From: Acidobacteriota bacterium
Lineage (GTDB): Bacteria > Acidobacteriota > Thermoanaerobaculia > Multivoradales > UBA5704
DNA: 64,000 nt
Assembly: GCA_040005235.1 (NCBI GenBank)
Contig: JBDTZG010000001.1
Coordinates: forward strand, 128,001 to 192,000
Direction: 5' to 3'
Translations under genes and position numbers: made by a program
Shown here: in pieces, positions 9,090 through 64,000 of the stretch
Numbering within the stretch: the stretch's first letter is position 1
Layout of the letters: every line of letters begins with the position of its first letter
Notes under the pieces: generated by a model
The model's input: the letters and a program-made list of their open reading frames with translations, nothing else
What the model was told of the DNA's origin: nothing
Database searches by the model: none

Positions 9090-9091
9090 AG

Positions 9092-9120
9092 TTGACGAGC
9101 GGGCCGCGAAGTGGTATTCC
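9092..9120 (+). promoter_or_regulatory. Putative sigma70 promoter for the IPTL-CTERM gene
   Basis: TTGACG, 17 bp, TATTCC with an extended-10 TG. The -10 match is weak. Confidence 0.35.
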
Positions 9121-9174
9121 CCCGGACAACTTCGTCGTACTCCATTCCGGCAGGTTGACCCCGAGGATCGCCCG

Positions 9175-16400: not shown

Positions 16401-16602
16401 GAGCCGCGGAGATGTGGGCCGCCGAGTAGCCGCGGGTCACGAGGTTGTCGCGCAGGATCGTCGCTTCTATGCGGCGATTGTTCTCGCGCTTTTTCCACTC
16501 GCCGAGGTAGCGATACCCGAGGGCGTCGGGACGCGCCGAGTCGGTGAACAGGGCGACGATGCGGTTCTGCGTGGTGCGCTCGGAGCGGAGCGGTTCGTTC
16601 AT
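13483..16602 (-). CDS. hsdR: Type I restriction endonuclease subunit R
   Basis: Nuclease motif [14 protein letters not shown], Walker [28 protein letters not shown] and QAICRTNR. Confidence 0.96.
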
Positions 16603-21663: not shown

Positions 21664-21718
21664 GGGGGCCGAAAGTATGTCCCACATTCCTCTCCGACGG
21701 TTTGCGAGCCCTTCCGAT

Positions 21719-24822: not shown

Positions 24823-25340
24823 CGTCTACTCCTGTGGCTCGTATGCTACCGCCGCACGCACCGAAACCAGGCGCCTTTCCCGGGAAAGAAGCGAAAGAAG
24901 TAAAAGACGCTGGCCCAGTCCTCGTTCCACCAACAAGCCCAAGCGCCCCCATACATCCGATTCGCCAAGCTCAGCCGTACTGAATCTCAAGCGGGCCAGA
25001 TGTAGGGGCCGGCTGCGGCTTCGGCGTCCCCGTTAAGAGGGCTTAGGCCCTGTAAATTCAGCTCGTTGCGCGATGCCTCGCACAGTCGTAGACAGCCTTC
25101 CCAACGTCCCGGTTCGGCTTGCCGATCGCACTATCCATCGGGTGGACTTTCGTGCCGTTCGAAGGGAGCTGCCGCGCATGGCTCCCTTCGCTTCCCAGCC
25201 AACGACAACATAAGGATGGCGCCTGGACCCCTGGCGGGTCGGCGGCACATCTTAAAAAGCGCCGCGGTACGGGTAGCGGCGTTTGCGCTGCGTACGACTT
25301 TTCAAGTTTGACGTAGCCCGCAGGAGAAGGAGAGGACCGG

Positions 25341-28300
25341 ATGAGCAGCATCGACGATCTGGGCAGCGCCGCCGGGCTTTCGGAGCAGGACCGGGAGCTG
25401 CTGGCCCTGTTGCTTGCCGAAGAGGGGGTCGAGCTGTCGGAGAGCGCGGCGATTCCGAAGCGTGCGATGGAGCTTCGGGGCGAGGCGCCTCTTTCCTGGT
25501 CGCAGGAGCGGCTGTGGGTGATCGACCGGATGGCGCCGGGCACCTCGACGCTCGACATCCCGGTCTCCGTGCGCCTGCTCGGCCGGCTCGACCGCGACGT
25601 GTTGGCGCGCTGCTTCGCCGAGATCGCCCGCCGGCACGAGTCGCTGCGCACCCGTTTCGTCGAGCGCGGCGGCGTGCCGCGCCAGGTGATCGATCCTCCC
25701 GTGGCGGACACCGCCGGGCACCTCGCGCTCGCCCAGCCCTTGGTCGATCTGGTGGGCCTTTCCGCCGGGCGTTGGGATGTCGAGATGCACCGCCTCGCCG
25801 CCGAGGACACCCGCCGCTCGTTCGACCTCGCGCGCGGCCCGTTGTTTTCGACCGTCTTGATCCGCCGGAGCCCCGACGAGCACGCGCTGCTGCTCAACAT
25901 TCATCACATCGTGACCGATGGCTGGTCGATGGGCGTGCTGATCGGCGAGCTGTCGGCGCTGTACCCCAAGGTCGCGGCGGCGGCCGCCGCCGGTCCGGCG
26001 GGGACGTTCGTGCCGCTGCCCGAGCTGCCGGTGCAGTACGCCGACTTCGCGGTCTGGCAGCGCGAGCGGTTGGGGGCCGACCAGGGGTTTGCCGAGCAGC
26101 TCAAATACTGGCGCGACCGCCTGACCGGCGTGCCGGCGCTGGAGCTGCCGACCGATCTGGCGCGGCCGGCGATCCAGAGCTTCCGCGGCGGCAGCGAGGT
26201 CCGCGTTTTGCCGCCGCCGCTCGCGGCGGGGCTGGCCGAGATGGCGCGGATGACCAGCGCCTCCCCCTACATGGTGCTGCTCGCGGTCTTCTCGCTGGTG
26301 CTCGGCCGCCTGTCGGGACAGGAGGACTTTGCGATCGGCAGCCCGATCGCCGGCCGCGGCCGGCCGGAGCTGGAAGGGCTGATCGGGTTCTTCCTGAACT
26401 CGCTCGCTCTGCGCGCCGACCTGTCGGGCAATCCGACCTTCCGCGAGCTGGTCGGCCGCGCGCGCGACACGGCGCTCGGCGCCTACGCCAACCAGGACGT
26501 GCCGTTCGAGCGGCTGCTCGGCGAGCTGGATGTCGAGCGCGATCTTTCGCGGACGCCGATCTTCCAGGTGCTGCTCAACATGCTGAACCTGCCGCGCGCC
26601 GAAGCGCGGTTCGAGGGCCTCGCGATCGAGCCGATCTCGGTGCCCGAGGTCGAATCGAAATTCGACCTCACCATCTACGCCTCCGAGTCGGCGGATGGGC
26701 TGATGCTGCGCCTGGTCTACAACGCCGACCTGTTCACCGCGGAGCGGATGCGCGAGCTGCTCGCCCAGCTCGAAGGCGCGCTGGTCCAGGCGTTTGCGGC
26801 GCCCGATCGGCCGATCTCGCAGATCCGCCTGCGGACCGCGGCGGCGGATGCCGGTTTGCCCGATCCGAAGGCGCCGCTCGACGCCACCTGGCGCGGCTCG
26901 GTGGTCGATCTGTTCCGGGACCAGGCGGCGCGCCGGCCGGAGCGCTTGGCGGTGACCGATCGCGCCGGCTCCTGGAGCTACGGCGAGCTGGCGGAAGCCT
27001 CGACGCGGATCGCCGCGCGGCTGCGCCGTCCGGGGGAAGGTTGGGCAGGCTTGGCGCGCGGCGAGCGGGTGGCGATCTGGACCCATCGGAGCGCGGCTCT
27101 CCCGGCCGCGGTGCTCGGCGCGCTCGAAGCGGGCGGCGTGTTTGCGATGCTCGATCCGGCTTATCCGGCGGAGCGGATTGTCGCGATGCTCGATCTCGCC
27201 GAGCCGCGGGCGTTCGTCCGTCTCGAAGCCGCGGGGCCGCTGCCGCCGGAAGTCGACGAATGGCTCGCGCGCGCCGGGGCGATCCGGGTGGACCTTCCCG
27301 CGGGCGGCGCGGCGGCGGTGCTGGAATCTTTGCCGGTTGCCGAAGAAAGCGCCGAAAGCCCCGGAAGCGAGACGATCGAGATCGGCCCGGACGATCCGGC
27401 GCTCGTCGCGTTCACTTCCGGCTCGACCGGCCAGCCGAAGGGAATCGTCGGCCGGCACGGGCCGCTCTCGCATTTCCTGCCTTGGCAGTGCGCGGAAATG
27501 GCGCTCTCGGAAAGTGACGTGTTCAGCCTGCTCTCCGGCCTCGCGCACGATCCGTTGCAGCGCGATCTGTTCACGCCGCTCAGCTTGGGCGCCGCGATCG
27601 CCGTGCCCGATCCGAGCGACATTGCGACCCCCGGCCGGCTCGCCGCCTGGATGGCCGAGCGGGGAGTCTCGGTCGCCCACTTGACCCCGGCGATGGGCCA
27701 GCTGATCGCGGAATCCGCCGAGCTGTCGGCGTCGCGCGGCGTGCCGGTGGCGGTGCCGTCGCTGCGTCGTGCTCTGCTGGTGGGCGATGCACTCACCCGG
27801 CTCGACGTAGCGAGGCTCGAACGGATCGCGCCGAACCTCACCTGCATCAACCTCTACGGCTCGACCGAGACCCAGCGCGCGGTGGCGTATCACGTGGTCG
27901 AACGGACGCCGGCGCGGGGCGAGATTGGGTCCGTCCCGCAGCTACTGGCTGCTGCCGAAGGCGCCCGAAGGAGCGAGGAGGCGGACCCAACCTCGCCCTC
28001 GGCCGCCACGCAGCGCGAAATCCTGCCCCTTGGCCGCGGCATGCAGGACGTGCAGCTTCTGGTGCTCGATGCGGAAGGCCGGCCGGCGGGCTTCGGCGAG
28101 GTGGGCGAGATCGCGGTGCGCAGCCCTCATCTGGCGGCCGGCTATCTGGGCGATCCGGAGATGACCCGGGCGCGCTTCGTGATCTCGCAAGAGGCCGCGG
28201 CCGATCCGGCCGATCGGATGTACAAGACCGGCGACCTCGGCCGCTACCGGCTGGATGGCGAGGTCGAGTTCGTGGCGCGCGCCGATGCGCAGGTGAAGAT

Positions 28301-28969
28301 CCGCGGCTTCCGAATCGAGCCGGGGGAGATCGAGGCGGCGCTTTCGCGCCACGGCGGAGTGCGCGAGGCGGTGGTCGTCGCGCGGACGGACGACAACGGC
28401 GCCAAGCGGCTGGTGGCCTATTACGTCGTCGCCCCCGGCGCGCCCACGCCTTCGGCCGAAGAGCTGGGCGAGTTTCTACGCGCGCGGCTGCCGGAGTACA
28501 TGGTGCCGGCGCTCTGGCTGGCGCTCGAACGGTTGCCGCTCACGCCGAACGGCAAGATCGACCGCCGGGCGCTGCCCGCGCCGCGCGCGGCTTCGACCGC
28601 CTCGGCCGAATACGTGGCGCCCAAAACCGACACCGAGCGGGCGATCGCCGAGGTCTGGCGCGAGGTGCTGGGGCTCGACCGGGTCGGCCGTCACGACAAG
28701 TTTTTCGCCCTCGGCGGCCACTCGCTGCTGCTGGTGCGCGCGCATGGACGATTGGCCGAGAAACTGGGCCGCGAGATCGCGGTGATCGACCTGTTCCGCC
28801 ACCCTGACGTGGCGTCGCTCGGCCGATTCTTGGACGGCGGCGCCACGTCGGACGTCGCCGCGGTCGAGGCGCGCGCGGAGGTGATCGAAGCGGGCAAGGA
28901 CCGCCGCCGGATGCGGCTCGAACGAAGGCAGGGGGCCGGTCCATCCGGCGTTACGTATGGGGACGAGCG

Positions 28970-28973
<4 letters not shown>
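25341..28973 (+). CDS. NRPS 1: C-A(Lys2/aminoadipate-like)-T
   Basis: HHIVTDG; AFTSGSTGQPKG; SGLAHDPLQRD; NLYGSTETQRA; GGHSL. Strong AGGAG-rich RBS. Confidence 0.95.
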
Positions 28974-49488
<20,515 letters not shown>

Positions 49489-49492
<4 letters not shown>

Positions 49493-52400
49493 GCGACACG
49501 ACGACCCAAAGCCGCGGGATCTCCGGCGAGGATCTGGATCTACTTTCCAGACTCTTGGAGCAGGAAGGGTTCGGCGCTCCGGCTTCGACCGCGATTCCGC
49601 GCCGCGCCGTTTTCGGATCGGCGGGCGAAGAGCTTCCGCTGTCGTATGCCCAACAGCGGCTCTGGTTTCTCGACCGGCTGCAGCCAGGCTCGGCGCAGTA
49701 CAACCTGTATTCGGCGCGCCGGTTTCCGCAGCCGATCGCCCTGACGGTGCTCGCGCGCACCCTTGGGGAGCTTGCGCGCCGCCACGAGACGCTGCGCACT
49801 ACGTTCGTGGAAGTCCAGGGCCGCGCGGTGCAGGTGATTGCGCCGCCGCCCCGCGCGGCGGTCCCGCCGGTCATCGATCTGCTCGGGCTGCCGAACGCGC
49901 GGCGCGAGGACGAGGTGGCGCGGGTCGCGGGCGCCGAATCCCGCCGGCCTTTCGACCTCTCACGCGGGCCGCTCTGGCGCGCGGCGGTCGTCCACGTTGG
50001 CGAAGGCGAGGATGTCCTTCTGTCGGTGATGCATCACATCATCTCGGACGGTGGGTCGCTGGGCGTGATGATGGGCGAGGTCTCGCGCCTGTATGCGGCT
50101 TTTGCCGCCGGCCGACCGTCTCCTCTGCCGGAGCTGGCGATCCAATACGCAGATTTCGCCCTCTGGCAGCGCGAGCGTCTTGAGGGTGGCGAGCTCGCCC
50201 GGGAGCTTGACTTCTGGCGTGCGGAGCTGTTGGGTGCGCCGCAGGTACTCGACCTGCCGGCCGATCGACCGCGGCCGGCGGTGCAGAGCTTCCGCGGCGC
50301 CAACGAGATGTTCTCGATCCCGGCCACCGACGCGGCGCGGCTGCGCGAGCTGGCGCGAGAAGAGGGCGCGACCCTGTTCATGGCCATGCTTGCCACCCTC
50401 GGCGCCACGCTCGGCAGGATCACCGGGCGCTTCGACCTGCTGATCTCTTCGCCGATCGCGAACCGAAACCGCCCCGAGATCGAGGCGCTGATCGGCTTCT
50501 TCGTCAACACCTTGGTTTTGAGGGTCGATCTCGCGGGGGAACCGAGCCTGCGCGAGATGATCCGCCGCACCAAGCTCCGAACCCTTGCCGCTTACGATCA
50601 CCAGAACCTGCCGTTCGAGAAGTTAGTCGAGGAGCTGCGTCCGGAGCGCGATCTGGCCCACGCGCCGCTGGTCCAGGTCATGTTGGCGCTGCAGACCGAG
50701 GACGCTCCGGCGATGCCGGCCGGCGGGGGAGCCGGCGGCGCGACCGCCGCGTCGGAGGTGCCACTGATGAACGGTACGGCGAAGCTCGACCTTTTGATCT
50801 CGATGATCGAGTCTTCGCGCGGCTTGAACGGTATGGCGGAGTACGCGACCGATCTGTTCGAGGGGGCGACGGTGCGGCGGTTGCTCGACGCTTGGCGGAC
50901 GTTGATCGCCGGGGCGCTCGCCACGCCTGAGGCGGCGGATCGGCCGCTCGCCGAGCTGCCGTTGCTCGACGCGGCCGAAACCCGGCGCCTGGTGGTCGAT
51001 TGGAACGACACCGCGGTCGCTTACGATCAGGCCGGAGCGCGGCTCCACGATCTGGTCTTCGCGCAGGCTGCGGCGACGCCGGATGCGATCGCTGTGGTAT
51101 TCGAGGAGTCGGCGCTCTCCTACGGCGCGCTGGCCCGCGCGGCGCAGCGCTTGGCACAGTCGCTGCGCCGTCGCGGCATCGGTCCTGAGATCGCCGTCGG
51201 CGTCTGCCTCGAACGGTCGCTCGAAATGCCGGTCGCATTGTTGGCGGTGCTCGAAGCGGGGGGCTTTTACGTTCCGCTCGATCCTGACTATCCGGCGGAT
51301 CGGCTGACCTACATGCTCGCGGACAGCCGGGTGCCGTTGGTTCTAATCTCGGCCGCCGTGCAGGCACGGATCGCCGATCTGCCCGAGGGCGTTGTGCGGG
51401 TCGATCCGGGCGATTGGGAGACGCTCAATCCGGTCGCGCCGGAGCTGGTGGAACGCGCGACGACCGAGCCGGAGACGCTCGCCTACGCGATTTACACCTC
51501 GGGCTCGACCGGCAAGCCAAAAGCGGGCATGAACGCGCACCGTGGGATCGTCAACCGATTGCTCTGGATGCGTGAGCGTTACGCCTTGGGACCGGCGGAT
51601 CGGGTGCTCCAGAAGACGCCGTTCAGCTTCGATGTCTCGGTCTGGGAGCTGTTTCTGCCGCTCCTGTCCGGCGCGCGACTGGTCATGGCCCGGCCGGGCG
51701 GTCATCAGGACGCAGGCTACCTGGTCGATCTGATCTCCCGCGAGGGAGTAAGCGTTCTCCACTTCGTGCCCTCGATGCTCCAGGTGTTCGTCGGCGAGCC
51801 GGGGGTGGCGGAGTTAAGCAGTCTGCGGGCGCTGATTTGTTCCGGCGAGGCGTTGCCTTCCACCCTGGTCGATCGCTTCTTCGCGCTGTTTTCCGGCCAC
51901 CTGAGCGCTCGCCAAGAACCCGAGCTGCACAACCTGTACGGCCCCACAGAGGCGGCGGTCGACGTCACCGAACAGGTCTGCCTGCCGGGCCTCGCGACCG
52001 TGCCGATCGGTCGGCCGATCGCGAACCTGCGCATCTATCTGCTCGATCCGGAGCGCCTGCCGGTGCCGGTTGGAGTTCCGGGCGAGCTGTTTATCGGTGG
52101 CGTCGGCGTAGGCCGCGGATACCTGCATCGGCCGCAGTTGACCGCCGCGGCGTTCGTGCCCGACGGCATCGGCGGAGAGCCGGGTGCCCGCCTCTATCGC
52201 ACCGGCGACCTCTGCCGGTTCGCCGTGGACGGCGCGATCGAGTATCTCGGGCGGATCGACCATCAGGTGAAGATCCGCGGCTTCCGCATTGAGCTGGGGG
52301 AGATCGAGCGAGCGCTCGCCGATCACCCGGATGTCTCCGAGTGCGTGGTGGCGACCTACGGCCCGGCGACCGATCGGCGCATCGCGGCGTATCTGGTCGC

Positions 52401-55400
52401 GGGTTCGTCGAAGCCGCCATCGATTGAAGAGCTCCGCACGTTCCTGGGTCGTAGCCTGCCCCTGTACATGATTCCCCAGGCGTTCGTCGCCTTGCCCGCT
52501 CTGCCGCTGTCGCCGAACGGAAAAATCGATCGCAAGGCTTTGCCGACGCCGGAGCTTTCGCGCCCGTCCCTCGGCGAGCAGTACGTCGCGCCGCGGACGG
52601 TCGCCGAGCAGGTGCTGGCGGTGGTTTGGGAGCATGTGCTCGGCGTCGAGCAGGTCGGCGCCCATGACAATTTCTTCGCTCTCGGCGGGGACTCGATCCG
52701 CAGCATTCAGGTGCTCGCCATGGCCCGCGAGCGAGGCCTGGAAATCTCGCTCCAGCAGCTGTTTCAACATCAGACTATCGCTGCCCTGGCCGCCGTCGCC
52801 GTCACTCCTTCAGCCGTGGAGGCGCCCACCGAGCCGTTCTCACTGCTCGCGCCGGAGGATCGCCAGCGCCTGCCGAGTGGGCCGGGGTTCGCGCTCGATG
52901 ACGCCTATCCCCTGGCGATGCTGCAGGCCGGCATGCTGTTCCACATGGTGCTGCGGCCCGAAGATCCGCCGTACCATAACGTCGACAGCTGGCAGCTGGT
53001 CGCGCGGTTCGACGCCGAGGCGTTTGCGCGTGCCACCGCCGATGTTGTCGCTCGCCATCCGGTGATGCGCACTTCGTTTCACCTGACCGGGTTTTCCGAA
53101 CCGATCCAGATGGTCCACCGGGAGGCGGCCTTACCGCTGACGGTGTTCGATCTCATCCACCTGACGGCGCTGGAGCAGCAGCGGGAGGTCGCGGCGCTGG
53201 TGCGCGCGGAAAAGCTCAAGATCTTCGACTTCACCCGCGCGCCGCAGCTTCGCTTTCACGTCCACCGGCTCGCCGAGGATCGGTTTCAGTTCACGCTCAC
53301 CGAGAACCACGCGATCTTCGATGGCTGGAGCTTGCACTCGACGTTGGCCGAGATTTTCAGCCGATATTTCGCTTACCTTCGCGGTGAAACCCCGGCATTC
53401 GAGGCGCCGCTCGCGCTTACCTATCGCGATTTCGTTGCGGCGGAACGGCGGACCCTCGAATCGGAAAGTGCCAAGGCGTTCTGGCGCGAACAATTAGCCG
53501 GCGCCTCGGTGCTCGAGCTGCCGCGCCCCAACCCGGTGACCCAGGCACCGGTCGGAGCGCGAGTCTGCCGGCTGATCCCGAACTTGTCGCCGGAGATCTC
53601 GCGGGCGGTGCGCTCGCTCGCGCGTCGTTCGGCGGTGCCGCTCAAGAGCGTGCTGCTCGGCGCGCACTTCAAGGTGATGAGCCTGCTTTCGGGCTCGCCC
53701 GACGTAATGATCGGGATCGGCTTCAACGGCCGCGCCGAGCTGTCGGGTGGGGACGATGTCCGCGGCCTGTTCTTGAACACACTTCCGGTCCGGTTCGAGG
53801 TCAAAGACGAGAGTTTTGCGCGAATTTCCGAACGGGCGTTCGAAACCGAACGCGACATCCTGCCCCACCGCCGCTACCCGTACAACCGTCTGCAGCAGGA
53901 GAACAGTGGCCGGCCGTTCTACGACGTGATCTTCAACTACATACACTTCCATGTCGTGGACAAAATGCTCGCCCACGAGGAGATCGGTGTGGTGGGTTTC
54001 CATGCCGCCGAAGGGACGAACTTCCTGCTCCAGGTTGCGTTCGCACCGGGCACCGACGAGCAAGGCATTCACTTTGCGCTCGAATACGACGGCGCACGCC
54101 TGTCGGAGACTGACGCGGCATGGATCGCCGGTTACTTCACGCGCTATTTCGCGGCGCTTGGCCAGGATCCGGACGCCTCGACCGCCACCGCCTCCCTGCT
54201 CGCCCCGGAGGAGCGCGAACAGATCCGCGCGGCGACCGCGCTCGCTGTTTCGCCGGTTGCACTGCCCTCTCTCGTCGAGCTGTTCGCGCGCGCGGTCGCC
54301 ACGCATGGAAAGCGGGAAGCGGTGCGCTGCGGCAACGCCGGGCTCACCTATGCCGAATTGGACCGGCGCGCCAACGCTCTTGCGCACCGCCTGATTCGCG
54401 ACGGTGTGCTGCCCGGGGACCTGGTCGCGGTGTCGCTCGACCGGTCGACCGATCTGATCGTTGCGCTGCTCGCCGTGCTCAAGAGCGGCGCGGGCTACGT
54501 GCCGATCGATCCGACCTATCCGGAGGAGCGCCGGGCGTTTCTGCTAAAGGATTCGGGCGCGCGCCTGCTGCTCGACGAGGTGGCAGCCGATCTCGCCCAA
54601 GAAGACCACGCGGCGCCCGTGCTGCGAATCACCGCGGCCGACGTTGCTTACGTAATCTACACCTCGGGCTCGACGGGCAAGCCGAAAGGGGTGCCGGTGC
54701 GCCACGGCGAAGTGGCGCGGCTGATGTCGTCGACCGACTCGTGGTTCGGATTCGGCCCCGACGACGTCTGGACGCTGTTTCATTCCTACGCGTTCGATTT
54801 CTCGGTCTGGGAGATCTGGGGGGCGCTCGCCTACGGCGGCCGGCTGATCGTGGTGCCCACCGCGATCTCGCGCGCTCCGGAGTCGTTCTATCGCCTGGTC
54901 CGCGACGAGAAGGTCACCGTGCTCAACCAGACGCCGTCGGCGTTCCAGCAGTTGATCTGGGCCGAGCGGGGGGTGTTCGAGGCCGACGGCCCGGCACCTC
55001 TGGCCCTGCGTTACGTGATCTTCGGCGGCGAGGCGCTCGATCTGCCGACGCTCGCGCCCTGGATCGAACGGCATCCCGATTCGACGCTGATCAACATGTA
55101 CGGCATCACCGAGACGACTGTCCACGTCACCTATCGGCCGATCGGCAAGGCCGACGTCCTGGCGAAGCGGGGGAGCCTGATCGGCGTGCCGATTCCCGAT
55201 CTCGCGGTCCACGTGCTCGACGCGTTCGGCATGCCCGCGCCGCTCGGGGTCTCCGGCGAGATGTACGTCTCGGGCGCCGGGCTCGCGGTCGGATATCTGG
55301 GGCGGCCGGAGCTGACGGCGGAACGCTTCGTGCCCGATTCGTTCTCGGGAGCTGTCGGCGCGCGGGCCTATCGCTCGGGCGATTTGGCCCGGCGGCTGCC

Positions 55401-56205
55401 CGCGGTCTCCGGCTTCGACCTTGAGTACCTGGGCCGGATCGACAACCAGGTGAAGATCCGAGGCTTCCGGATCGAGCTGGCCGAGATCGAGGCGGTGCTC
55501 GCCGCGCACCCCGGCGTCCGGCGCGCGATCGTGGTTCCGCGCGAGGATGTCGCGGGCGACAAGCGGCTGGTCGCCTACGTCGTGCTCGCGGACTCTTCGA
55601 TCTCGGCCGACGACCTGCGCGGCGCGGCGCAGGCCAACCTGCCGGAATACATGGTTCCCGCGGCGGTGGTGATCCTGCCCGAGTTGCCGCTCACTCCGCA
55701 CGGCAAGGTCGACGTGCGCGCGCTGCCGCTGCCGGCCGGCACCCGCGAGGCCTCGCGCCAGGCGTTCGTCGAGCCGAGGACGCCGCTCGAAGAGCGGATC
55801 GCGGCGATCTGGGCCGAGGTGCTGCGGCTCGAGAAGGTGGGCGTGCGCGACGGCTTCTTCGACCTCGGCGGCAACTCGATCCTCGCCACCCAGGTGTTCG
55901 CCCGGCTGCGCGAGACGTTCGGCTTCGAGGTGCCGATGCGCACGCTGTTCGAAGAACCGACGATCGAGCGCCTGGCGGTGACGATCGGCGAGCTGCAGGC
56001 GCGCGGTCCGAGCGCGGAGGCGGAGTCGCAGCGGATCGCGCGGCGCCGGAGCGAGGGCGATGCGGTCGGAGCGGTCGGAGCGATTCCCGCGGCACCCAAG
56101 GATGCCGACAAGATCCGCACCGATCTCGCGGCGATGACGCCCGAGGCGATCCGCAAGTTGCTCGCCGAGAAGCGGGCGAAGAAACAACAGGGAGGACAGG
56201 GGTGA
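49489..56205 (+). CDS. NRPS 3: C-A(Ser)-T-C(modAA-like)-A(Thr)-T
   Basis: A codes DVWHISLVD (Ser) and DFWNIGMVH (Thr); T motifs GGDSI and GGNSI; second C motif ENHAIFDG. Confidence 0.95.
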
Positions 56206-59200
56206 GCGAAATCTCCGAGCCCGATTCTGCCGCCGAGCTGGCTGCCGATCTCGAAGGCGATCTCGAAGCCGAGCGCCTCGCGCTGCTGGATCTGCTGCTC
56301 GAAGAGGAGGCGGAGGAGGCCGCCGCTCCCGCCGCGGCGATCGGACATGCGACGGCGCCCGAGCGGATTCCGCTGTCGCTGTCGCAGCGCCGGCTGTGGA
56401 TCGCCGATCGGCTCGATCCGGGCACGGCGCTGTTCAACATCCCGGCCTCGCAGCGGCTCTCGGGGGAGCTCGACATCCGGGCGCTCCGTGCCGCGCTCCA
56501 GGCTCTGGTCGATCGCCACGAGAGCCTGCGCACGACGTTTTCGACCGCCGACGGCAATGCCGGCGCGCGCGGGTCGAGCGAAGGTTTCCAGGTCATCGCC
56601 CGGCATCGCGAAGTCGATCTGCCGCGGATCGACCTGTCGCTGCTGCCGCTTTCCCTGGCGCTCCAGACGTCTCTTCGTCTATCGGGGCTTTCCCAGTCGC
56701 GCGGCTTCGACCTCGAACAGGGTCCGCTCCTCCGCTTCGCCCTGATCGAGATGGCTCCCCGAGACAACGTGCTGCTGGTGACGATGCATCACATCGTCGC
56801 CGACGGCTGGTCGCTGTCGATCTTCCAGCGCGAGTTCGCCGCGTTCTACGCCGGCTTTGCGAAGAATCAGCCGGCAACGCTTCCGGCGCTGCCGATTCAG
56901 TACGCGGACTTCGCGCTCTGGCAGCGCGACTGGCTGCGCGGCGAGGTGCTCGAAAATCAGCTCGCTTTCTGGCGCGACCATCTCGCCGATGCGCCGTTCT
57001 TGGCCGAGCTGCCGACCGATCGGCCGCGTCCCAGGGTGCGCAACTTCCGCGGCGGTAAGGTCGCGCGCCTGGTCGCCGATTCGGTCACCGAAGCGTTCCA
57101 CCGCCTGGTCCGCGGCGAAGGGGTGACCTATTTCGCCTCGGCGTTGGCGCTCGGACACGCCTGGCTCGGCCGCCTCACCCGCAGCGACGACGCGTTGATC
57201 GGATCGCCAATCGCCGGGCGCCACCGGATCGAGACCGAAGGCGTGATCGGTTTCTTCGTCAGCAACCTGGTCTTCCGCGCCCAGCTTCGAGGCGATCCCA
57301 CGGCGCGCGAGCTGCTGGTGCGGACGCGCGAGGAGACGCTCGCGATCCTGTCGCACCAGGACGTGCCGTTCGATCTGCTGGTCGAAGCGCTCGCTCCGGA
57401 GCGCGACCTGTCGACCACGCCGATCTACCAGGTGCAGCTGATGGCGTTCGAGGGTCAGCGCCGCGCCGACGCGTCGGCGCACGCCGCGGACGAGACGGCG
57501 CGCACCAGGGCGATGGGGGGCTTGCGCCTCACGCCTCTCACCTCGGGCGACGAGATGTCGATGTTCGACCTGTCGATGACCATCGCCGAAGGGGGTCGTC
57601 GGCTCGCGCTGCAATACAACCGCGATCTGTTCGATGCCGCGACGATCGAGCGGATGGCCGGCTACTTCGAGAATCTGATGGCGGCTTTTGTCGCCGAGCC
57701 CGATCGCCATCTGTCCGAGATCGCGATGATCGGGCAAGACGAGCGGCGCCAGCTGCTGCTCGAATGGAACCCGCCTTCCTCCCGGGCGGCGTTTTCCCAG
57801 AAGACCCTGCTGCCCGAATGGGTGGCGATCCATGCGAAGAGCCGCCCCCAAGCGATCGCGGTCGAGATGGGGGACATGTCCCTGACCTACGCCGAGCTGG
57901 ACGAGCGTTCGAACGCGCTCGCGCGCTACCTGGCGATGTTCGGCGTCGGACCCGAGGTGAGAGTAGGGCTCTGCCTCATGCGCTCGCTCGATCTGGTGGT
58001 CGGCCTGATCGCGGTGCAGAAGGCCGGCGGCGCCTATCTGCCGCTCGATCCCACCTATCCGATCGACCGGCTGGCCGGCATGATCGAAGACGCGGGCCTG
58101 ATGCTGCTGCTCGCCCAAGACGCCACGCTCGACGCGCTGCCGGCGGGCACCGCCTATGTGATCAACCTCGACCGGACGGACGAGATGGCCGCGATGATGG
58201 GGGATGGTGGCGACGAAGCGGGAGACGGGGCAACGCCGGAGCCGCCGCCCGGCCCCTGCCCTGAGCACCTCGCCTACGTGATTTTCACCTCGGGCTCGAC
58301 GGGCCGGCCGAAGGGCGTGATGCTCGCGCACGACGGCCTCGCGAACCTGTGCGCCGAGCAGGCGCGAATCTTCGCGGTGGGGCCGGAAAGCCGGGTGCTC
58401 CAATTCGCCTCGGTGTCGTTCGACGCCTCGGTCGCCGAGATCGCGGTGGCGCTCTGTGCCGGCGCCGCTCTGGTGCTTGGGGCGCCGGACGATCTGCTCC
58501 CCGGGCCGGGCTTGGTGCGGCTGCTCGCCTCCCGGCGGATCACCAAGGCGACGATTCCGCCTTCCGCGCTCGCCGTGCTGCCGGCCGGAGCCGAAGCCGA
58601 GCTGCCGGACCTGCGCACCCTGGTGGTAGCGGGCGAAGCCTGTTCGCCCGAGCTTGCGGCGATCTGGGGCCGCGGGCGCCGATTCGTCAACGCCTACGGC
58701 CCGACCGAGGCGACGGTCTGCGCCACCGCCGAGCTCTTCGTCGAGGGCAAGGCGCTCACCTTGGGCCGGCCGCTTTCCGACGTCGAGATCCATGTGCTGG
58801 GTTCCCGTTTCGAACCCCTGCCGGTGGGTGTCGCGGGCGAGCTGCTGATCGGTGGCCGGGGCCTTGCGCGTGGCTATCTGAACCGCCCCGATTTGACCGC
58901 CGAGCGCTTCGTGCCGCACCCCTTCGCCGCCGAACGCGGCGATTTCGGGGATCCCGGCGCGCGGCTCTATCGCACCGGCGACCTGGTGCGGCGCCTGGCC
59001 GACGGACGGATCGAGTTCCTCGGCCGGATCGACCATCAGGTGAAGGTGCGCGGCTTCCGCATCGAGCTGGGCGAGATCGAGGCGGCGTTGCGCGCGCAGG
59101 CGGGGGTCAGAGAGGTCGTGGTGCTCGCGCGCAACGATTCGGGCGGCGGTTTATCGGGTGGTAATGCGGACCGGCTGGTCGCCTACCTGCTCGCCGAGCC

Positions 59201-62200
59201 CGAGCGCGAGCTGGTGCCGGCCGATTTGAAGGCGGCGCTTTCCGCGCGGCTGCCGGAGTACATGGTGCCCGCGGCATTCGTGGTGCTTGGGGCCTTTCCG
59301 CTCACCGCCAACGGCAAAGTCGATCGGAAGGCGCTGCCCACGCCGGAGCTGGCGCATCTGCACGTCGAGGGGGTGCGTTACGAGGCGCCGCGCGACGCGA
59401 TCGAAACGCTGGTGGCGGAGGTCTTCGGCGAGGTGCTCGGCCTTTCCGGCGAGATCTCGATCCACGATTCGTTCTTCGACTTAGGCGGCCACTCGCTGCT
59501 CGCCACCCAGCTCTTGTCCCGCGTGCGCGACGCATTCGGCGTCGAGCTGGCGCTGCGCCAGGTGTTCGAGGCGCAGACGATCGCGAGCTTCTCCCGCGCG
59601 ATCGAGGCGGCGCAGCGCGAAGCGCGCGGCCTCGAATCCGGGCCGATCGAACGCCGCCCGCGCGTGGCCGGGGCGGATCTGCCGCTGTCGTTCGCGCAGG
59701 AGCGGTTGTGGTTTCTGGACCAGTTGGAGCCGGGAAGCCCGACCTACAACATCCCGAGTGCCCTGCGCGTCCGCGGCGCGCTCGATCCTTTGCGGCTCGC
59801 CGCGGCGCTGCGCTACCTGGAGCGGCGCCACGAGTCGCTGCGCACTACATTCCCCACCCGGGCCGGGCGCGCGGCGCAGGAGATCGCGGCGCCCGATTCC
59901 GTCGATTCGCCCCGGGGGGCGCTGCTCTTTGCCCGGGTGGATCTTGCCGCCCTCTCGGAGGCGCGCCGCGAGGTGGAGACGCTGCGCCTCGCGGGGAAAG
60001 AGGCGATCCGGCCTTTCGATCTGGCGACCGGGCCGCTCGGCCGCGTGGTGCTGGTGCATCTGTCGCCGCAGCCGGCGACCGAGCAGGCGCTGCTGCTCAC
60101 CGTCCATCACGTCATTTCCGACGGCTGGTCGATGGGCGTTTTCGTGCGCGAGCTGGCCGAGGTCCACTCGGCGCTGGTCGAAGGCCGCGAGCCCGACGCC
60201 AATGTCCTGCCGCCTCTGCCGATCCAGTACGCCGACTTCGCCGCCTGGCAGCGCGGCTGGCTCACCGGCGACGTCCTCGCGCGCCAGATCGATCATTGGC
60301 GCCGGCACCTTCTGGGCGCGCCCGAGCTGCTCGCTCTGCCCACCGACCGGCCGCGGCCGGCGATCCAGAGCTACCGCGGCGCCTCGGTCGCGCGGCCCTC
60401 GGCTCCGGGAACCGTCGAGCGCCTGCACGCGCTCTCGCGGGCGGAAGGCGCGACGCTGTTCATGACGTTGCTCGCCGGCTGGTCGACGCTGCTCTATCGC
60501 TATACCGGGCAGACCGACATTCCGGTCGGCACTCCGATCGCGAACCGCAACCGGGCGGAGGTCGAAGGGCTGATCGGCTTCTTCGTCAACACCCTCGTCC
60601 TGCGCACGCGGGTGGCGCCGCGGCAGAGCTTCCGCGCGCTGCTCGGCACGGTGCGCGAATCGACGCTCGAAGGGTACGCGCACCAGGATCTGCCGTTCGA
60701 AAAGCTGGTGGAGGCGATCGCGCCGGAGCGCAATCTTTCCTACTCGCCGCTGTTCCAATCGATGCTCGTGCTGCAGAACAACCCCGACCGGCCGCTCGAA
60801 TTGCCTGGCTTGGAAATCTCCGGCCTCGCGATGTCGGGCGAGGTGTCGAAATACGACCTGACGCTGAACGCGATCGAGCTGGGACCGCGGCTGGCCTGCC
60901 GGGTGGTTTACAGCACGGCGCTGTTCGAGGCGGCGACGGTCGAGCGGATTCTCGGCCATCTCCACGCGCTGCTCCATGCGCTGCTCGATCAGCCCGACCG
61001 GCCGGTCGGGACGCTCGACCTCTTCTCGGGGGAGGAGCGGCGCACCCTGCTGATCGAATGGAACGAGCCGGCGGTCGTGCACCCGTCCGAAGGCTACCTG
61101 CCGCAGATGTTCGAGGAACGGGTCGATGCCGGGCCGGCGCGCATCGCGGTCGAATTCGATTCCCGCACCGAATCGGAGAGGGCGGCCGGAGGCGCGGGAT
61201 TCTCGATGCTCACCTACGCCGAGCTGGACGCGCGGGCGAACCGGCTGGCCCGCCATCTGCGCCGGGCGGGGGTCGGACCCGAAACGCGCGTCGGCGTCTG
61301 CCTGGAGCGCTCGCTCGACTTGCCCGTAGCGCTGCTTGCCGTCCTGAAGGCGGGGGCGGCCTACCTGCCGCTCGACCCGAGCCTGCCGGAGGATCGCCTG
61401 CGCCATTTGGTGGCGGACGCCTCGGCGCCGGTGGTCGTCACGGTCGGCCGGTTCGTCGAACGGCTCGGCACTGATCGCACCGATCGCTTCGATCGCTTCG
61501 GGGGGCCGCATCTCGTCCTCCTGGACGATGCGGCGACCGCCGCGGCGATCGCTGAGGAACCGGCGGAGCGCCTGTTGCCCGCGGCTTTGGGCGAGCACCC
61601 GGCCTACGTGATCTATACCTCCGGGTCGACAGGTCAGCCCAAAGGGGTGGTGGTGACTCACGGCGCTCTGGGCAACCGGCTGCGCTATGCCCTCGCAACC
61701 GACTTTGCGACCGACGCCGAAGTGTTCCTCCAAAAGACCACGATCAGCTTCGACGTTTCGGTGCTCGAAATCTTTGCGCCTTTAGTCTCCGGCGGGCGCA
61801 CCGTGCTGCCCGAGCCCGAAGGGCATCGCGATCCCGCTTATCTGGTGCGCCTGATCGCCGAGCGGCGGATCACCCAGGCGTCGTTTCCCCCTTCGACCCT
61901 CGCCCTGCTGCTCGATTCGGGCGCGCTCGACGAGTGCCGCGATCTGCGGCTGCTGGTCACCGGCGGCGAGACCGTGCCGGCCGATCTGCCGAACCGGGTT
62001 CACGAGCGCCTCCCGTGGATCGACGTCTACAACCGCTACGGGCCGACCGAGGCGACGATCTCGGTCACCTCCTGGCTCTGCCGGCCGGACGCCGCCGAGC
62101 GCTCTCTGCCGATCGGCCGGCCGACCGCCAAGGCCCACGTCTATCTGCTCGACCGCGAAGGCGAGCCGACGCCGGTAGGCGTACCGGGCGAGCTGCATCT

Positions 62201-64000
62201 CGGCGGCATCTGCCTCGCCCGCGGCTATCTCGACCGGCCGGCGATGACCGCCGCGGCATTCGTGCCGAACCCCTTCTCCGAGACCCCCGGCGAGCGGCTC
62301 TACGCCACAGGCGATCTCGCGAAGTGGCGCGCCGACGGCGCGATCGATTTCGTCGGCCGGATCGACGGCCAGATCAAGATCCGCGGCTTCCGCGTCGAGC
62401 TGGGGGAGATCGAAGCGGCTCTCTATCGCTGCCCGGGAGTGCGCGAAGCGGCGGTGATCGATCGCGAGGACACGCCGGGCCAGAAGCGGCTGGTGGCCTA
62501 CTTCGTCCCTGAGGTCGCCGATGCCGAGGCGCCTGCGGAACCCTCCGATCTACCGCGCGCGTTGCGCGAGCGGCTCGCCGCCGAGCTGCCGGCCTACATG
62601 GTGCCCGCGGCGTTCGTGGCGATTGAAAAGCTGCCGCTTTCGCCGACCGGAAAAGTCGATCGCAAAGCGCTCCCCGCGCCTCCCGCCGAAGCGGCGACCG
62701 TCTCCGGCTACGCGCCGCCGCGTACCGAGACCGAGACGCTGCTCGCGGCGATCTGGGCCGAGGCGCTCGGTCTCTCCCGCGTCGGCATTCACGACAACTA
62801 TTTCGCGCTCGGCGGCGACTCGATCCTGTCGATCCAGATCGTCGCGCGGGCCAACCAGGCCGGCTGCCGCATCGCGCCGCGCCAGCTGTTCCAGCACCAG
62901 ACCGTGGCCGAGCTGGCCGCCGTCGCCGGCACCATCGACGCGGTCGAAGCGGAGCAGGGAGCGGTGACTGGCGAGGCGCCGCTGTCGCCGATCCAAAGCT
63001 GGTTCCTCGCGAGCGACCGGCCCGACCGCCACTGGTTCAACCAGTCATTCCTGGTGAGCGTCGAGCGCGGGGTCGAACCGGCGGCGGTCGAGCAGGCGAT
63101 CTCAACTCTCGTCGAGCATCACGACGCGCTGAGGCTGCGGTTCGAAAAAAAGCTCACCGAGGGATGGAGGCAAGAGCTGGCGCCGGTGGGTTCCGCGAGC
63201 GACCTGCCCTTTGTGCACGTCGACCTCTCGGATCTGCCGGTAGGGGAGCGGCGAGCCGCGCTCGAAGCGAAATGCGCCGCCCTGCAGTCGAGCCTCGATC
63301 TTGAAAATGGACCGATCCTCCGCGCCGCCCTGTTCGATCTAGGTGCCGACGAGCCGCGCCGGCTGTTGCTCGCGATCCATCACCTCGCGGTCGACGGCGT
63401 TTCCTGGCGCATTCTGTTCGAAGACCTGGAGAATGCGCTCGCGGGCCGCGACCTGCCGGCCAAGACCACCTCGTGGAAAGCCTGGACCGAGAAGCTCGCG
63501 GCGCTTGACCTCGAAGGCGAAGCCGCCGATTGGCAAGACCGGCCGGAGATCTCGTTCCGACTGCCGATCGAGCCGCGCGGCGAGAATCTCGTCTCCGCCG
63601 CCAAGAGCGTCGCGGTCTCTTTCGACGCCGAAGAGACTCGCAGCCTGCTCCAAGCGCCCGCTGCTTACCGAGCGCAGATCCAGGACCTTCTGCTCACCGC
63701 CCTCCAAGCCACCCTCGCCGGCGATTCGCCGTTGCCGATCGAGCTGGAAGGCCACGGCCGCGAAGAGGATCTCGTCCCGAACGTCGACCTCACCCGCACC
63801 GTCGGCTGGTTCACCACGCTCTATCCGGTCACCCTCGAAGTCCCCGCGAACGCCGGCCCCGGAGAGCGCCTGAAGTCGATCAAAGAACGCCTCCACACCC
63901 TCCCGAGCCGAGGCTTGAGCCACGGCGTTCTCCGCTGGCTCGGACGGTCCGAAACGCGCACAGCGCTCGCCGCTTTTTCCCCCCCTGAGGTTTCTTTCAA
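56202..64000 (+). CDS. NRPS 4 (partial, runs off the window): C-A(aromatic)-T-C-A(unknown)-T-E...
   Basis: Absent from the ORF track, apparently because it has no stop inside the window. GTG at 56202 overlaps the upstream TGA after GGAGG. In-frame motifs: HHIVADG (56787), GGHSL (~59484), HHVISDG (60105), GGDSI (62811) and E-domain HHLAVDGVSW (63378), LEGHGRE, RTVGWFT. Confidence 0.93.
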   Translation, partial: MSEISEPDSAAELAADLEGDLEAERLALLDLLLEEEAEEAAAPAAAIGHATAPERIPLSLSQRRLWIADRLDPGTALFNIPASQRLSGELDIRALRAALQALVDRHESLRTTFSTADGNAGARGSSEGFQVIARHREVDLPRIDLSLLPLSLALQTSLRLSGLSQSRGFDLEQGPLLRFALIEMAPRDNVLLVTMHHIVADGWSLSIFQREFAAFYAGFAKNQPATLPALPIQYADFALWQRDWLRGEVLENQLAFWRDHLADAPFLAELPTDRPRPRVRNFRGGKVARLVADSVTEAFHRLVRGEGVTYFASALALGHAWLGRLTRSDDALIGSPIAGRHRIETEGVIGFFVSNLVFRAQLRGDPTARELLVRTREETLAILSHQDVPFDLLVEALAPERDLSTTPIYQVQLMAFEGQRRADASAHAADETARTRAMGGLRLTPLTSGDEMSMFDLSMTIAEGGRRLALQYNRDLFDAATIERMAGYFENLMAAFVAEPDRHLSEIAMIGQDERRQLLLEWNPPSSRAAFSQKTLLPEWVAIHAKSRPQAIAVEMGDMSLTYAELDERSNALARYLAMFGVGPEVRVGLCLMRSLDLVVGLIAVQKAGGAYLPLDPTYPIDRLAGMIEDAGLMLLLAQDATLDALPAGTAYVINLDRTDEMAAMMGDGGDEAGDGATPEPPPGPCPEHLAYVIFTSGSTGRPKGVMLAHDGLANLCAEQARIFAVGPESRVLQFASVSFDASVAEIAVALCAGAALVLGAPDDLLPGPGLVRLLASRRITKATIPPSALAVLPAGAEAELPDLRTLVVAGEACSPELAAIWGRGRRFVNAYGPTEATVCATAELFVEGKALTLGRPLSDVEIHVLGSRFEPLPVGVAGELLIGGRGLARGYLNRPDLTAERFVPHPFAAERGDFGDPGARLYRTGDLVRRLADGRIEFLGRIDHQVKVRGFRIELGEIEAALRAQAGVREVVVLARNDSGGGLSGGNADRLVAYLLAEPERELVPADLKAALSARLPEYMVPAAFVVLGAFPLTANGKVDRKALPTPELAHLHVEGVRYEAPRDAIETLVAEVFGEVLGLSGEISIHDSFFDLGGHSLLATQLLSRVRDAFGVELALRQVFEAQTIASFSRAIEAAQREARGLESGPIERRPRVAGADLPLSFAQERLWFLDQLEPGSPTYNIPSALRVRGALDPLRLAAALRYLERRHESLRTTFPTRAGRAAQEIAAPDSVDSPRGALLFARVDLAALSEARREVETLRLAGKEAIRPFDLATGPLGRVVLVHLSPQPATEQALLLTVHHVISDGWSMGVFVRELAEVHSALVEGREPDANVLPPLPIQYADFAAWQRGWLTGDVLARQIDHWRRHLLGAPELLALPTDRPRPAIQSYRGASVARPSAPGTVERLHALSRAEGATLFMTLLAGWSTLLYRYTGQTDIPVGTPIANRNRAEVEGLIGFFVNTLVLRTRVAPRQSFRALLGTVRESTLEGYAHQDLPFEKLVEAIAPERNLSYSPLFQSMLVLQNNPDRPLELPGLEISGLAMSGEVSKYDLTLNAIELGPRLACRVVYSTALFEAATVERILGHLHALLHALLDQPDRPVGTLDLFSGEERRTLLIEWNEPAVVHPSEGYLPQMFEERVDAGPARIAVEFDSRTESERAAGGAGFSMLTYAELDARANRLARHLRRAGVGPETRVGVCLERSLDLPVALLAVLKAGAAYLPLDPSLPEDRLRHLVADASAPVVVTVGRFVERLGTDRTDRFDRFGGPHLVLLDDAATAAAIAEEPAERLLPAALGEHPAYVIYTSGSTGQPKGVVVTHGALGNRLRYALATDFATDAEVFLQKTTISFDVSVLEIFAPLVSGGRTVLPEPEGHRDPAYLVRLIAERRITQASFPPSTLALLLDSGALDECRDLRLLVTGGETVPADLPNRVHERLPWIDVYNRYGPTEATISVTSWLCRPDAAERSLPIGRPTAKAHVYLLDREGEPTPVGVPGELHLGGICLARGYLDRPAMTAAAFVPNPFSETPGERLYATGDLAKWRADGAIDFVGRIDGQIKIRGFRVELGEIEAALYRCPGVREAAVIDREDTPGQKRLVAYFVPEVADAEAPAEPSDLPRALRERLAAELPAYMVPAAFVAIEKLPLSPTGKVDRKALPAPPAEAATVSGYAPPRTETETLLAAIWAEALGLSRVGIHDNYFALGGDSILSIQIVARANQAGCRIAPRQLFQHQTVAELAAVAGTIDAVEAEQGAVTGEAPLSPIQSWFLASDRPDRHWFNQSFLVSVERGVEPAAVEQAISTLVEHHDALRLRFEKKLTEGWRQELAPVGSASDLPFVHVDLSDLPVGERRAALEAKCAALQSSLDLENGPILRAALFDLGADEPRRLLLAIHHLAVDGVSWRILFEDLENALAGRDLPAKTTSWKAWTEKLAALDLEGEAADWQDRPEISFRLPIEPRGENLVSAAKSVAVSFDAEETRSLLQAPAAYRAQIQDLLLTALQATLAGDSPLPIELEGHGREEDLVPNVDLTRTVGWFTTLYPVTLEVPANAGPGERLKSIKERLHTLPSRGLSHGVLRWLGRSETRTALAAFSPPEVSF

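Follow-up and report, generated by a model that had tools for sequence, protein, structure and literature searches.

What does a sulfotransferase do when it is built into the middle of a nonribosomal peptide assembly line, directly after a module with a tyrosine code? The locus described here raises this question in an uncultured soil Acidobacteriota bacterium of the class Thermoanaerobaculia, and was found in a 64,000-nucleotide stretch of one contig of that genome (the window). Orphan NRPS-PKS clusters are very common in metagenome-assembled genomes (MAGs), and the cluster as such is unremarkable: it belongs to a well-known type of machinery, apart from one unusual in-line sulfotransferase (ST) domain. 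Here we report that this cluster is real, intact and orphan, and we weigh whether the ST would leave a permanent sulfate on tyrosine or serve some other end.

A complete four-gene NRPS-PKS line

Four translationally coupled genes on the + strand make up the line, the first starting at 25341. The ORF listing gives g1 (25341-28973, 1210 aa), g2 (28970-49492, 6840 aa) and g3 (49489-56205, 2238 aa), while g4 starts at 56202 and its reading frame is still open at the window end (64000); the whole of g4 encodes 7272 aa, with its stop at window-equivalent 78020 (contig C118:206020), 14,020 bases beyond the window. The gene junctions read ATGA, ATGA and GTGA in gene order, the same overlaps as in the initial annotation, which was made from the window alone. 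That annotation had also expected a line of more than 38 kb that continues to the right. It does so through the rest of g4, four further modules and a thioesterase (TE), but no MbtH, transporter or PAPS gene follows; the complete line measures 52.7 kb (~53 kb) and comprises 14 NRPS modules and 1 PKS module, and the partial product proposed there has to be extended by Thr-Tyr-Gly-Gly. All 17,560 codons of the four genes are open in the source genome. The frameshifts or missing release domain by which a dead cluster was to be recognized were thus not encountered, as four frames are open and the TE closes the line.

Domains were assigned by Pfam and a domain map, within the window and beyond it, for a total of 14 C, 14 A and 15 carrier domains. 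Both approaches place 10 NRPS modules and 1 PKS module in the window, the number counted earlier. The first gene is C-A-T, with C1 at 25479-26846 (LCL type, HHIVTDG), A1 at 26913-28556 (Lys2-like) and T1 at 28626-28850. The second opens with KS-AT-T (29000..31996) and goes on with five C-A-T modules (modules 2-6, read as Gly, Gly, Tyr with the ST, Gln and an aromatic residue). Its KS (29000-30451) has a complete Cys-His-His triad (Cys in SACSTS; His in HGTAT and NIGH) and is followed by an AT (30554-31396; GHSVG, HAFH) and a carrier (31790-31996), a full KS-AT-carrier module. Neither Pfam nor motif inspection found a KR, DH or ER domain in this module, and a KR is absent from the entire line, in keeping with the hybrid NRPS-PKS origin and keto group that had been proposed for the product. 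Two C-A-T modules make up g3 (module 7 with a Ser code, module 8 with a Thr code). Inside the window g4 carries module 9 (aromatic), module 10 and an E domain from 62970; past the window it encodes a DCL-type C11, then Thr, Tyr, Gly and Gly modules, and the TE (window-equivalent 77268-78011; PF00975, E 3.6e-23, GASLGG). Catalytic motifs are retained throughout: HHxxxDG or a close variant in every C domain, the carrier serine in 15 of 15 carriers and HHLAVDG in the E domain. With repeated C-A-T units, KS-AT-carrier and a terminal release domain, the locus has the make-up of a modular hybrid NRPS-PKS.

Specificity codes were read from an alignment of all 14 A domains, which agrees with the codes given before. 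The codes DILQ(L)GMVWK (A2 and A3), DASTVAAVCK (A4), DAWQFGLIDK (A5), DVWHISLVDK (A7) and DFWNIGMVHK (A8) are those we take to denote Gly, Gly, Tyr, Gln, Ser and Thr, and modules 11-14 beyond the window presumably specify Thr, Tyr, Gly and Gly. A6 and A9 share DAATVAAVCK, tentatively an aromatic residue (Ar), and A10 (DVLSVGRISK) is left as a tentative Xaa. The residue of module 10 would be D-configured, as already suggested, because an E domain and then a DCL-type C domain follow it.

The closest relatives of the source genome are themselves Thermoanaerobaculia MAGs. Orthologues of g1 with at least 73% identity occur in six of seven congeners, and three relatives have a collinear version of the cluster (77-91% nucleotide identity); modules have been gained and lost among the congeners' collinear clusters. 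The similarity begins upstream of g1, at a conserved non-coding stretch on the + strand (24948..25340) that is likely the promoter and ribosome-binding site, with GGAGAAGGAGAGG directly 5' of the first ATG. The flanks contain no MbtH, transporter, PAPS or regulator gene, and none of their genes has an evident biosynthetic role; MbtH, transporter and PAPS functions are encoded on other contigs of the genome. Upstream lie a type I restriction-modification system, a BNR protein and a globin, and downstream a 634-aa protein without family match, a ClsB-like phospholipase D protein, a di-haem oxidoreductase and a glycosyltransferase. Most of the stretch is present in just two sequencing runs. They come from a single study, one being a root metagenome and the other a soil metagenome, and either may be the source. 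The stretch is listed for no RNA run, which carries no weight either way on expression. The contigs aligned to g4 were short unitigs with many repeat-driven joints and have no bearing on the assembly of the repeated Gly modules.

The opening module and the condensation domain after Ser7

Together with the C-terminal half of C1, A1 (code DPRHLVLRAK) matches the Lys2 model TIGR03443 over model positions 2-578 with 598 bits, against 271 bits for A8, an ordinary A domain of the line. This fits the Aad/Glu residue proposed earlier. The score lies below the model's cut-off of 1030 and a reductase domain is absent, so the protein is not a Lys2 as a whole: its A domain is like that of the Lys2 alpha-aminoadipate reductase, but here it is embedded in a C-A-T module that feeds a KS. 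When A1 was compared with two Microcystis genomes in search of a side-chain-activating Glu domain, only the C-terminal subdomain matched, and a literature search for specificity-code strings found no match; for these reasons TIGR03443 is the one line of evidence used for the assignment. The substrate is predicted to be acidic, aminoadipate or glutamate for instance, and may be activated at its side-chain carboxyl.

A lipo-initiation role was considered for C1; its similarities do not support a starter type, though it might still function as one. The best solved relatives are LCL elongation domains (Txo2, 290 bits; Txo1, 285 bits), whereas surfactin chains reach 95-99 bits and CDA synthetase I is absent from the list of 42 chains with E<=1e-10; we take the first-module C domains of CDA and surfactin to be the solved starter-type representatives. 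C1 is 84-97% identical in three orthologues, a conservation equal to that of A1, and retains HHIVTDG in them. No donor for C1 is encoded near the locus.

C8 (52891..54225, + strand), placed after the Ser carrier, is unique in the source genome. Its best solved matches are the second C domain of McyA (8jbr, 320 bits) and the CmodAA domain of AmbE (7r9x, 199 bits), ahead of the next chain at 145 bits. We take the McyA domain to come after the Ser module from which microcystin obtains its dehydroalanine, and the AmbE CmodAA is presumably dehydrating as well. C8 thus groups with the CmodAA class both by its closest relatives and by its position after a Ser/Thr carrier, and like the McyA domain it follows a Ser-loading module, in accord with the dehydro residue that the initial annotation had tentatively placed before Thr; its own dehydrating role is predicted. 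The code of module 7 reads Ser in the source genome and one congener and Thr-like in two other congeners, as expected for a Dha/Dhb position. C8 was also considered as a dual E/C domain, and was rejected as such on the grounds that a second, N-terminal His motif is lacking and the best matches are McyA and AmbE.

C8 could instead be merely a divergent C domain, for example one accepting a D- or otherwise unusual donor, with Ser7 remaining serine. Its motif, NHAIFDG, in which Asn replaces the first His of HHxxxDG while McyA and AmbE have HH, lends this some weight, yet the wide margin of the McyA and AmbE matches, the lack of an E domain in module 7 and the alternation of its code between Ser-type and Thr-like among congeners all argue the other way, and we consider an unmodified serine unlikely.

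A sulfotransferase after the tyrosine module

The ST (41984..42790, + strand; g2 aa 4339-4607) is a Sulfotransfer_3 domain (PF13469, E 1.4e-27) that stands directly after the Tyr-module carrier and before C5, as had been noted from the open reading frames. A4 and T4 together span 40079..41806 (T4, 41621-41806, GGNSI), so that the order is T-ST-C in mid-line. Its best solved relatives are the ST of the olefin synthase OLS (4gox; 231 bits, E 2e-67) and that of CurM (4gbm; 221 bits, E 2.6e-64), and the match to chains of the protein tyrosine sulfotransferase TPST2 is weak (25 bits, E 6e-5), which does not place it in that family. The PRSGST loop and RHPY, the PAPS motifs, are both retained. Where CurM and OLS read ELHL, whose Glu-x-His we take to be functional, this domain reads ELEL: the Glu is kept and the His is replaced by Glu. 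The same ELEL is shared with 117 of the 120 NRPS-embedded relatives listed in the alignment.

By sequence the ST belongs with those of CurM (curacin A) and OLS (Synechococcus PCC 7002), with which it shares family, PAPS motifs and a carrier-tethered substrate. In context it differs. In CurM and OLS the order is ACP-ST-TE, within a PKS, and the ST sulfates a beta-hydroxyl to make it a leaving group during release; the present domain belongs to an elongation module of an NRPS, downstream of an A domain with a Tyr code. ST domains embedded in NRPSs have been described in OciA (Planktothrix cyanopeptolin/oscillapeptin) and DysB (dysinosin), which give sulfated products (PMC2533009, PMC6520454); their target is a starter, glyceric acid, within the loading region. 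Compared by these descriptions only, the systems are alike in having an ST built into an NRPS, but ours follows an amino-acid elongation module.

Homologues of the ST were found in 818 longer proteins at E<=1e-20, and domains were called on the 120 of the 818 that were listed. Among these 120 the ST is followed by a C domain in 48 and shows the CurM-like ST-TE order in 62. An upstream A domain is present in 31 of the 48 ST-C proteins, with a readable code in 22 of the 31: among these listed matches 9 codes are Ser-type, 8 Thr-type, 4 Tyr-type and 1 other, and the ST domain therefore follows hydroxy-amino-acid carriers. In the listed ST-TE proteins Ser, Thr and Tyr types account for just 21 of 51 readable upstream codes, so that modification of the adjacent hydroxy residue is not a general rule. 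The carrier-ST-condensation layout is widespread in Acidobacteriota NRPSs, occurring in hundreds of proteins, and the new point is its tyrosine context. Five related loci (L004-L008) show the Tyr-ST block, and each has preserved it. Gly-Gly-Tyr-ST is likewise intact in the three that cover it completely (L005-L007), one of which is a relative's second cluster, whereas the reading in L008 is Gly-Dab-Tyr-ST. An APS kinase gene, for PAPS supply, is present on contig C99, and an ST that follows a Ser position lies on contig C84.

An aryl (phenol) sulfate cannot leave by beta-elimination, and the tyrosine context therefore favours a sulfate that is retained. Against tyrosine sulfation counts that the closest solved STs act on beta-hydroxyacyl carriers, where the sulfate is a leaving group, and not on phenols, and so do the weak TPST2 match and the Glu in place of the His of ELHL. 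The ST might accordingly leave no sulfate in the product, through transient sulfation, action on another residue or inactivity; among solved chains it is closest to the "activating" STs from CurM and OLS, the ST-TE order prevails in the counts above, and in most listed ST-C homologues the preceding residue is Ser or Thr, which would allow elimination. We nevertheless hold an unsulfated product to be improbable. The neighbouring residue is Tyr-coded, the PKS module without KR provides no beta-hydroxyl for sulfation, the Ser position has its own McyA-type C domain and does not need an ST for dehydration, and the PAPS motifs are intact.

A silent or decaying cluster without a product is suggested by a single premature g4 stop in each of two relatives (TAA in one, TAG in the other, at different positions), which may reflect relaxed selection, and by the absence of adjoining regulator, transporter and MbtH genes. 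The stops may also be MAG errors, since an isolated stop in a MAG consensus can arise in this way; all codons and all checked catalytic motifs are intact in the source genome, the cluster is kept in most congeners, and C1 and A1 are 82-97% identical between species, which together make decay quite improbable. It is very improbable that the cluster belongs to an already described compound. The freely accessible literature that was searched yielded no NRPS in which an ST follows an elongation module for an amino acid, no product from Thermoanaerobaculia, no study of the carrier-ST-condensation layout and no characterised counterpart of the cluster, which bears out the earlier impression of an uncharacterised combination. 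The close ST homologues among the matches listed all bear generic MAG-annotation names only.

Proposed pathway and its meaning

Based on these observations, we propose a pathway in which every substrate and every chemical step is predicted from the domains and their codes. The g1 protein would load its Lys2-type substrate, which C1, as an LCL domain, would couple to an acyl or peptidyl donor encoded outside the locus. The KS-AT-T of g2 would add one malonate unit and leave the beta-keto group unreduced, and the thirteen later modules would add Gly-Gly-Tyr-Gln-Ar-Ser-Thr-Ar-D-Xaa-Thr-Tyr-Gly-Gly. While the chain is held on T4, the PAPS-dependent ST would O-sulfate Tyr, and this sulfate, being that of a phenol, would stay in the product. 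C8 would then dehydrate Ser7 to dehydroalanine while coupling Thr8, and the terminal TE would free the chain in linear or cyclised form. The product should be a 14-residue peptide with a sulfated Tyr and a dehydrated Ser. We regard an intact four-gene hybrid line with this sulfotyrosine and dehydroalanine pathway as probable.

The cluster is complete, with every frame open, and has been conserved throughout a genus of uncultured Thermoanaerobaculia. Only with tyrosine do the two readings of the ST, stable sulfate or leaving group, predict outcomes that differ and are easy to measure, and since a sulfate on Tyr cannot eliminate, this cluster offers the cleanest test between the two for the ST family; as the ST and a McyA-type dehydrating domain lie in one line, both chemistries can be compared in one product. 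The chances seem to us evenly balanced that ELEL-type NRPS-embedded STs are a general, hitherto uncharacterised on-line tailoring class that O-sulfates carrier-bound hydroxy amino acids, with this line as a nonribosomal route to sulfotyrosine. Far less probably, such a product, if formed close to roots, could mimic plant sulfotyrosine peptide signals.

Gene layout and boundaries of an intact assembly line

The NRPS-PKS cluster is real and intact. The ORF listing resolves four plus-strand genes, g1 (25341-28973, 1210 aa), g2 (28970-49492, 6840 aa), g3 (49489-56205, 2238 aa) and g4 (from 56202, open at the window end), whose overlaps, as the initial annotation had described them, read ATGA, ATGA and GTGA at the successive junctions; a purine-rich ribosome-binding stretch lies 5' of the g1 ATG. 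The window is positions 128001-192000 of C118, one of 140 contigs in a 6.22 Mb genome (G000) with quality scores of 100% completeness and 0.33% contamination. On this contig g4 encodes 7272 aa and ends at C118:206020 (78020 in window numbering run past its end), bearing out the expected continuation to the right. No interruption of the g1-g4 frames was found in the ORFs and domain map on the contig, and a TE domain stands at the g4 end; the refutation proposed for the observation, a dead cluster with frameshifts or no release domain, does not hold.

Pfam scans, together with a map seeded by the cluster's own domains, gave the domain order: C-A-T in g1; KS-AT-T and then five C-A-T modules in g2, with a sulfotransferase domain (ST) between T4, which is the fourth carrier of g2 and belongs to NRPS module 4, and the next C; two C-A-T modules in g3; and C-A-T, C-A-T-E, four C-A-T modules and TE in g4. 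The 10 NRPS modules and one PKS module reported for the window are thereby confirmed, and the whole line comprises 14 NRPS modules and one PKS module across 52.7 kb. The KS retains its Cys-His-His residues (SACSTS, HGTAT, NIGH), the AT carries GHSVG and HAFH, and no reductive domain fits in the PKS module, as the gap from AT to carrier is only 130 residues. The serine motif is kept in all 15 carriers, the E and TE domains show HHLAVDG and GASLGG, and the C domains have HHxxxDG or near variants throughout (HHSVSDD in C6, HHIVSDA in C13 and C14, NHAIFDG in C8).

In nucleotide comparisons, similarity to relatives starts at 24948-25103, some 240-390 bases 5' of g1. Upstream, the window encodes type I restriction-modification genes (13483-21753), whose hsdR and hsdS are separated by a Schlafen/AlbA_2-HTH gene (16599-18002), along with proteins of Calx-beta/cupredoxin (6084-8285) and HYR-domain (8980-12654) type, a BNR protein and a globin. 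Because the neighbour of g1 in one relative is a two-gene histidine kinase-response regulator unit whose counterpart here lies at C118:120001-122666, some 30 kb appear to have been inserted upstream in G000; the stretch absent in the relative is window 1-24948 plus C118:122664-128000. Downstream lie a 634-aa protein, a ClsB-like protein, a di-haem oxidoreductase and a glycosyltransferase. The 634-aa frame (minus strand, window-equivalent 78550-80454, or L002:10550-12454 in locus numbering) converges on the g4 end, has coding-like codon bias and is syntenic, with the ClsB-like gene, in one relative; no Pfam or NCBIfam match to it was found. Among the flanking genes examined, none adjacent to the cluster is an MbtH, transporter or PAPS gene; an APS kinase is encoded elsewhere in the genome on C99, and two MbtH-like genes on C73 and C101.

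Substrate codes and condensation domains

Read against published codes, the A domains presumably select Gly in A2, A3, A13 and A14 (DILQ(L)GMVWK), Tyr in A4 (DASTVAAVCK) and A12 (DASTIAAVCK), Gln in A5 (DAWQFGLIDK), a Tyr/Phe-like residue in A6 and A9 (DAATVAAVCK), Ser in A7 (DVWHISLVDK) and Thr in A8 (DFWNIGMVHK) and A11 (DFWNVGMVHK); that of A10 (DVLSVGRISK) is not known to match any published code. A1 has a Lys2-like code (DPRHLVLRAK) and scores 598 bits against the Lys2 model TIGR03443, versus 271 for A8, the match beginning within the C-terminal half of C1. The predicted substrate of A1, supported by this score at the level of class rather than of a named residue, is a Lys2-like acidic amino acid. 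Elsewhere in G000, a cassette resembling the g1-g2 start, with a Lys2-like A domain (DPRHFVYRAK) and carrier followed by KS-AT-carrier (C132:44970-52430), recurs inside a different large NRPS-PKS cluster as one of its internal steps, and a third DPRH-type A domain is found on C84.

C1 is of the LCL type (top solved matches Txo2 and Txo1). It is 84-97% identical in three orthologues, compared with 82-93% for A1, and the 46-residue N-terminal tail is equally conserved; this conservation and the intact HHIVTDG motif suggest that C1 is probably used. No donor for it is encoded at the locus. C8, which follows the Ser module, itself without an E domain, has its closest solved relatives in McyA (condensation domain 8jbr, 320 bits) and AmbE CmodAA (7r9x, 199 bits), ahead of the next chain, PvdL, at 145 bits, and is the sole representative of its kind in the genome, where the next-best match reaches 170 bits.

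The in-line sulfotransferase and the predicted product

The ST (Sulfotransfer_3, PF13469, E 1.4e-27 in Pfam) sits between T4 of the Tyr-coded module 4 and C5. Its best solved relatives are the STs of olefin synthase (4gox, 231 bits) and CurM (4gbm, 221 bits), with only 25 bits for protein tyrosine sulfotransferase. The PAPS loop PRSGST and RHPY are present, whereas the ELHL motif of the CurM and olefin-synthase enzymes has ELEL as its counterpart here. NRPS-embedded precedents are OciA (PMC2533009) and DysB (PMC6520454), both of which act on a glyceric-acid starter according to those reports; no others were found in the literature searched, subscription journals and MIBiG lying outside its scope.

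Of 8000 candidates scored as longer homologues of the ST, 818 proteins reached E<=1e-20. Among the 120 of these that were listed, almost every one is a fragment of an NRPS from Thermoanaerobaculia, Pyrinomonadaceae or another group of Acidobacteriota; all bear generic names only, and 117 keep ELEL. By domain calls on these 120, the ST is followed by TE in 62 and by C in 48, and 10 are cut off after the ST. Among the ST-C proteins an upstream A domain is present in 31 and its code readable in 22 (five partial): Ser-type in nine, Thr-type in eight, Tyr-type in four and another type in one. Readable codes in the ST-TE proteins (51 of 57) are Thr-type in 11, Ser-type in seven, Tyr-type in three and of other or unknown types in 30. 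These ST-TE homologues show an NRPS module ending in carrier-ST-TE, most commonly C-A-T-ST-TE of ~1700 aa, an arrangement equivalent, for peptides, to the release module of curacin. G000 itself has a second in-line ST (C84:6177-6824, minus strand, locus L107), which follows a module coded for Ser within an NRPS frame of 7176 aa on a short contig, and further ST matches on C55, C35, C104, C86 and C139.

Retention of the tyrosine sulfate is suggested by the location of the ST on the Tyr carrier, by the hydroxy-amino-acid carriers that mid-line members of the family follow, and by a chain that has no beta-hydroxyl at that stage, together with the fact that an aryl sulfate cannot eliminate. Against it, the nearest characterized STs produce leaving groups, the amino-acid assignments are presumptive readings of the codes, and in the ST-TE relatives the preceding residue is often of unknown type. 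Each of the five related loci in which the stretch is visible (L004-L008) keeps the Tyr-ST pairing; Gly-Gly-Tyr-ST is complete in three, including a second cluster of one relative, and L008 reads Gly-Dab-Tyr-ST. Dehydration would be handled by C8, a device separate from the ST, and the TE would release the finished chain. The product is most likely X-(Lys2-type acidic residue)-CO-CH2-CO-Gly-Gly-Tyr(OSO3)-Gln-Ar-Dha-Thr-Ar-D-Xaa-Thr-Tyr-Gly-Gly, and the initial interpretation, a sulfated keto-peptide with a dehydro-residue, is supported and extended.

Conservation and the NRPS content of the lineage

When the T-ST-C stretch was searched against a single genome for each species, the six best loci (78-94% identity) came from five MAGs of Thermoanaerobaculia. 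Orthologues of g1 (73-95% identity) occur in six of the seven other genomes of the genus, one being partial and containing TAG; the best match in the seventh is 53%, and none above 60% was found outside the genus among the 31 genomes compared, G000 included. Three relatives have clusters collinear with this one, at a nucleotide identity of 77-91%. In one relative a single terminal Gly module stands in place of two (window-equivalent about 73500-76700), and another is without the Thr11 and Tyr12 modules (equivalent of 65265-72184). The module 7 code is Ser in G000 and one relative and Thr-like (DFWSVGMVHK) in two others; that of module 11 differs in one congener (DYWNNGLVIK). In two congener MAGs g4 has a single premature stop, at different sites (G001, C54 nt 20019; G002, C11 nt 27114; TAA and TAG), both Glu codons in G000; these stops may reflect true nonsense mutations or errors in the MAG consensus.

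A-domain matches at E<=1e-30 number 91 on 20 contigs of G000, with 14 within the cluster and most of the remainder in multi-thousand-residue frames, and a single C-A-T query gave 164-194 matches in each of four relatives. A Thermoanaerobaculia MAG with NRPS genes also appears in a table of PMC10681181. NRPS genes abound in this lineage.
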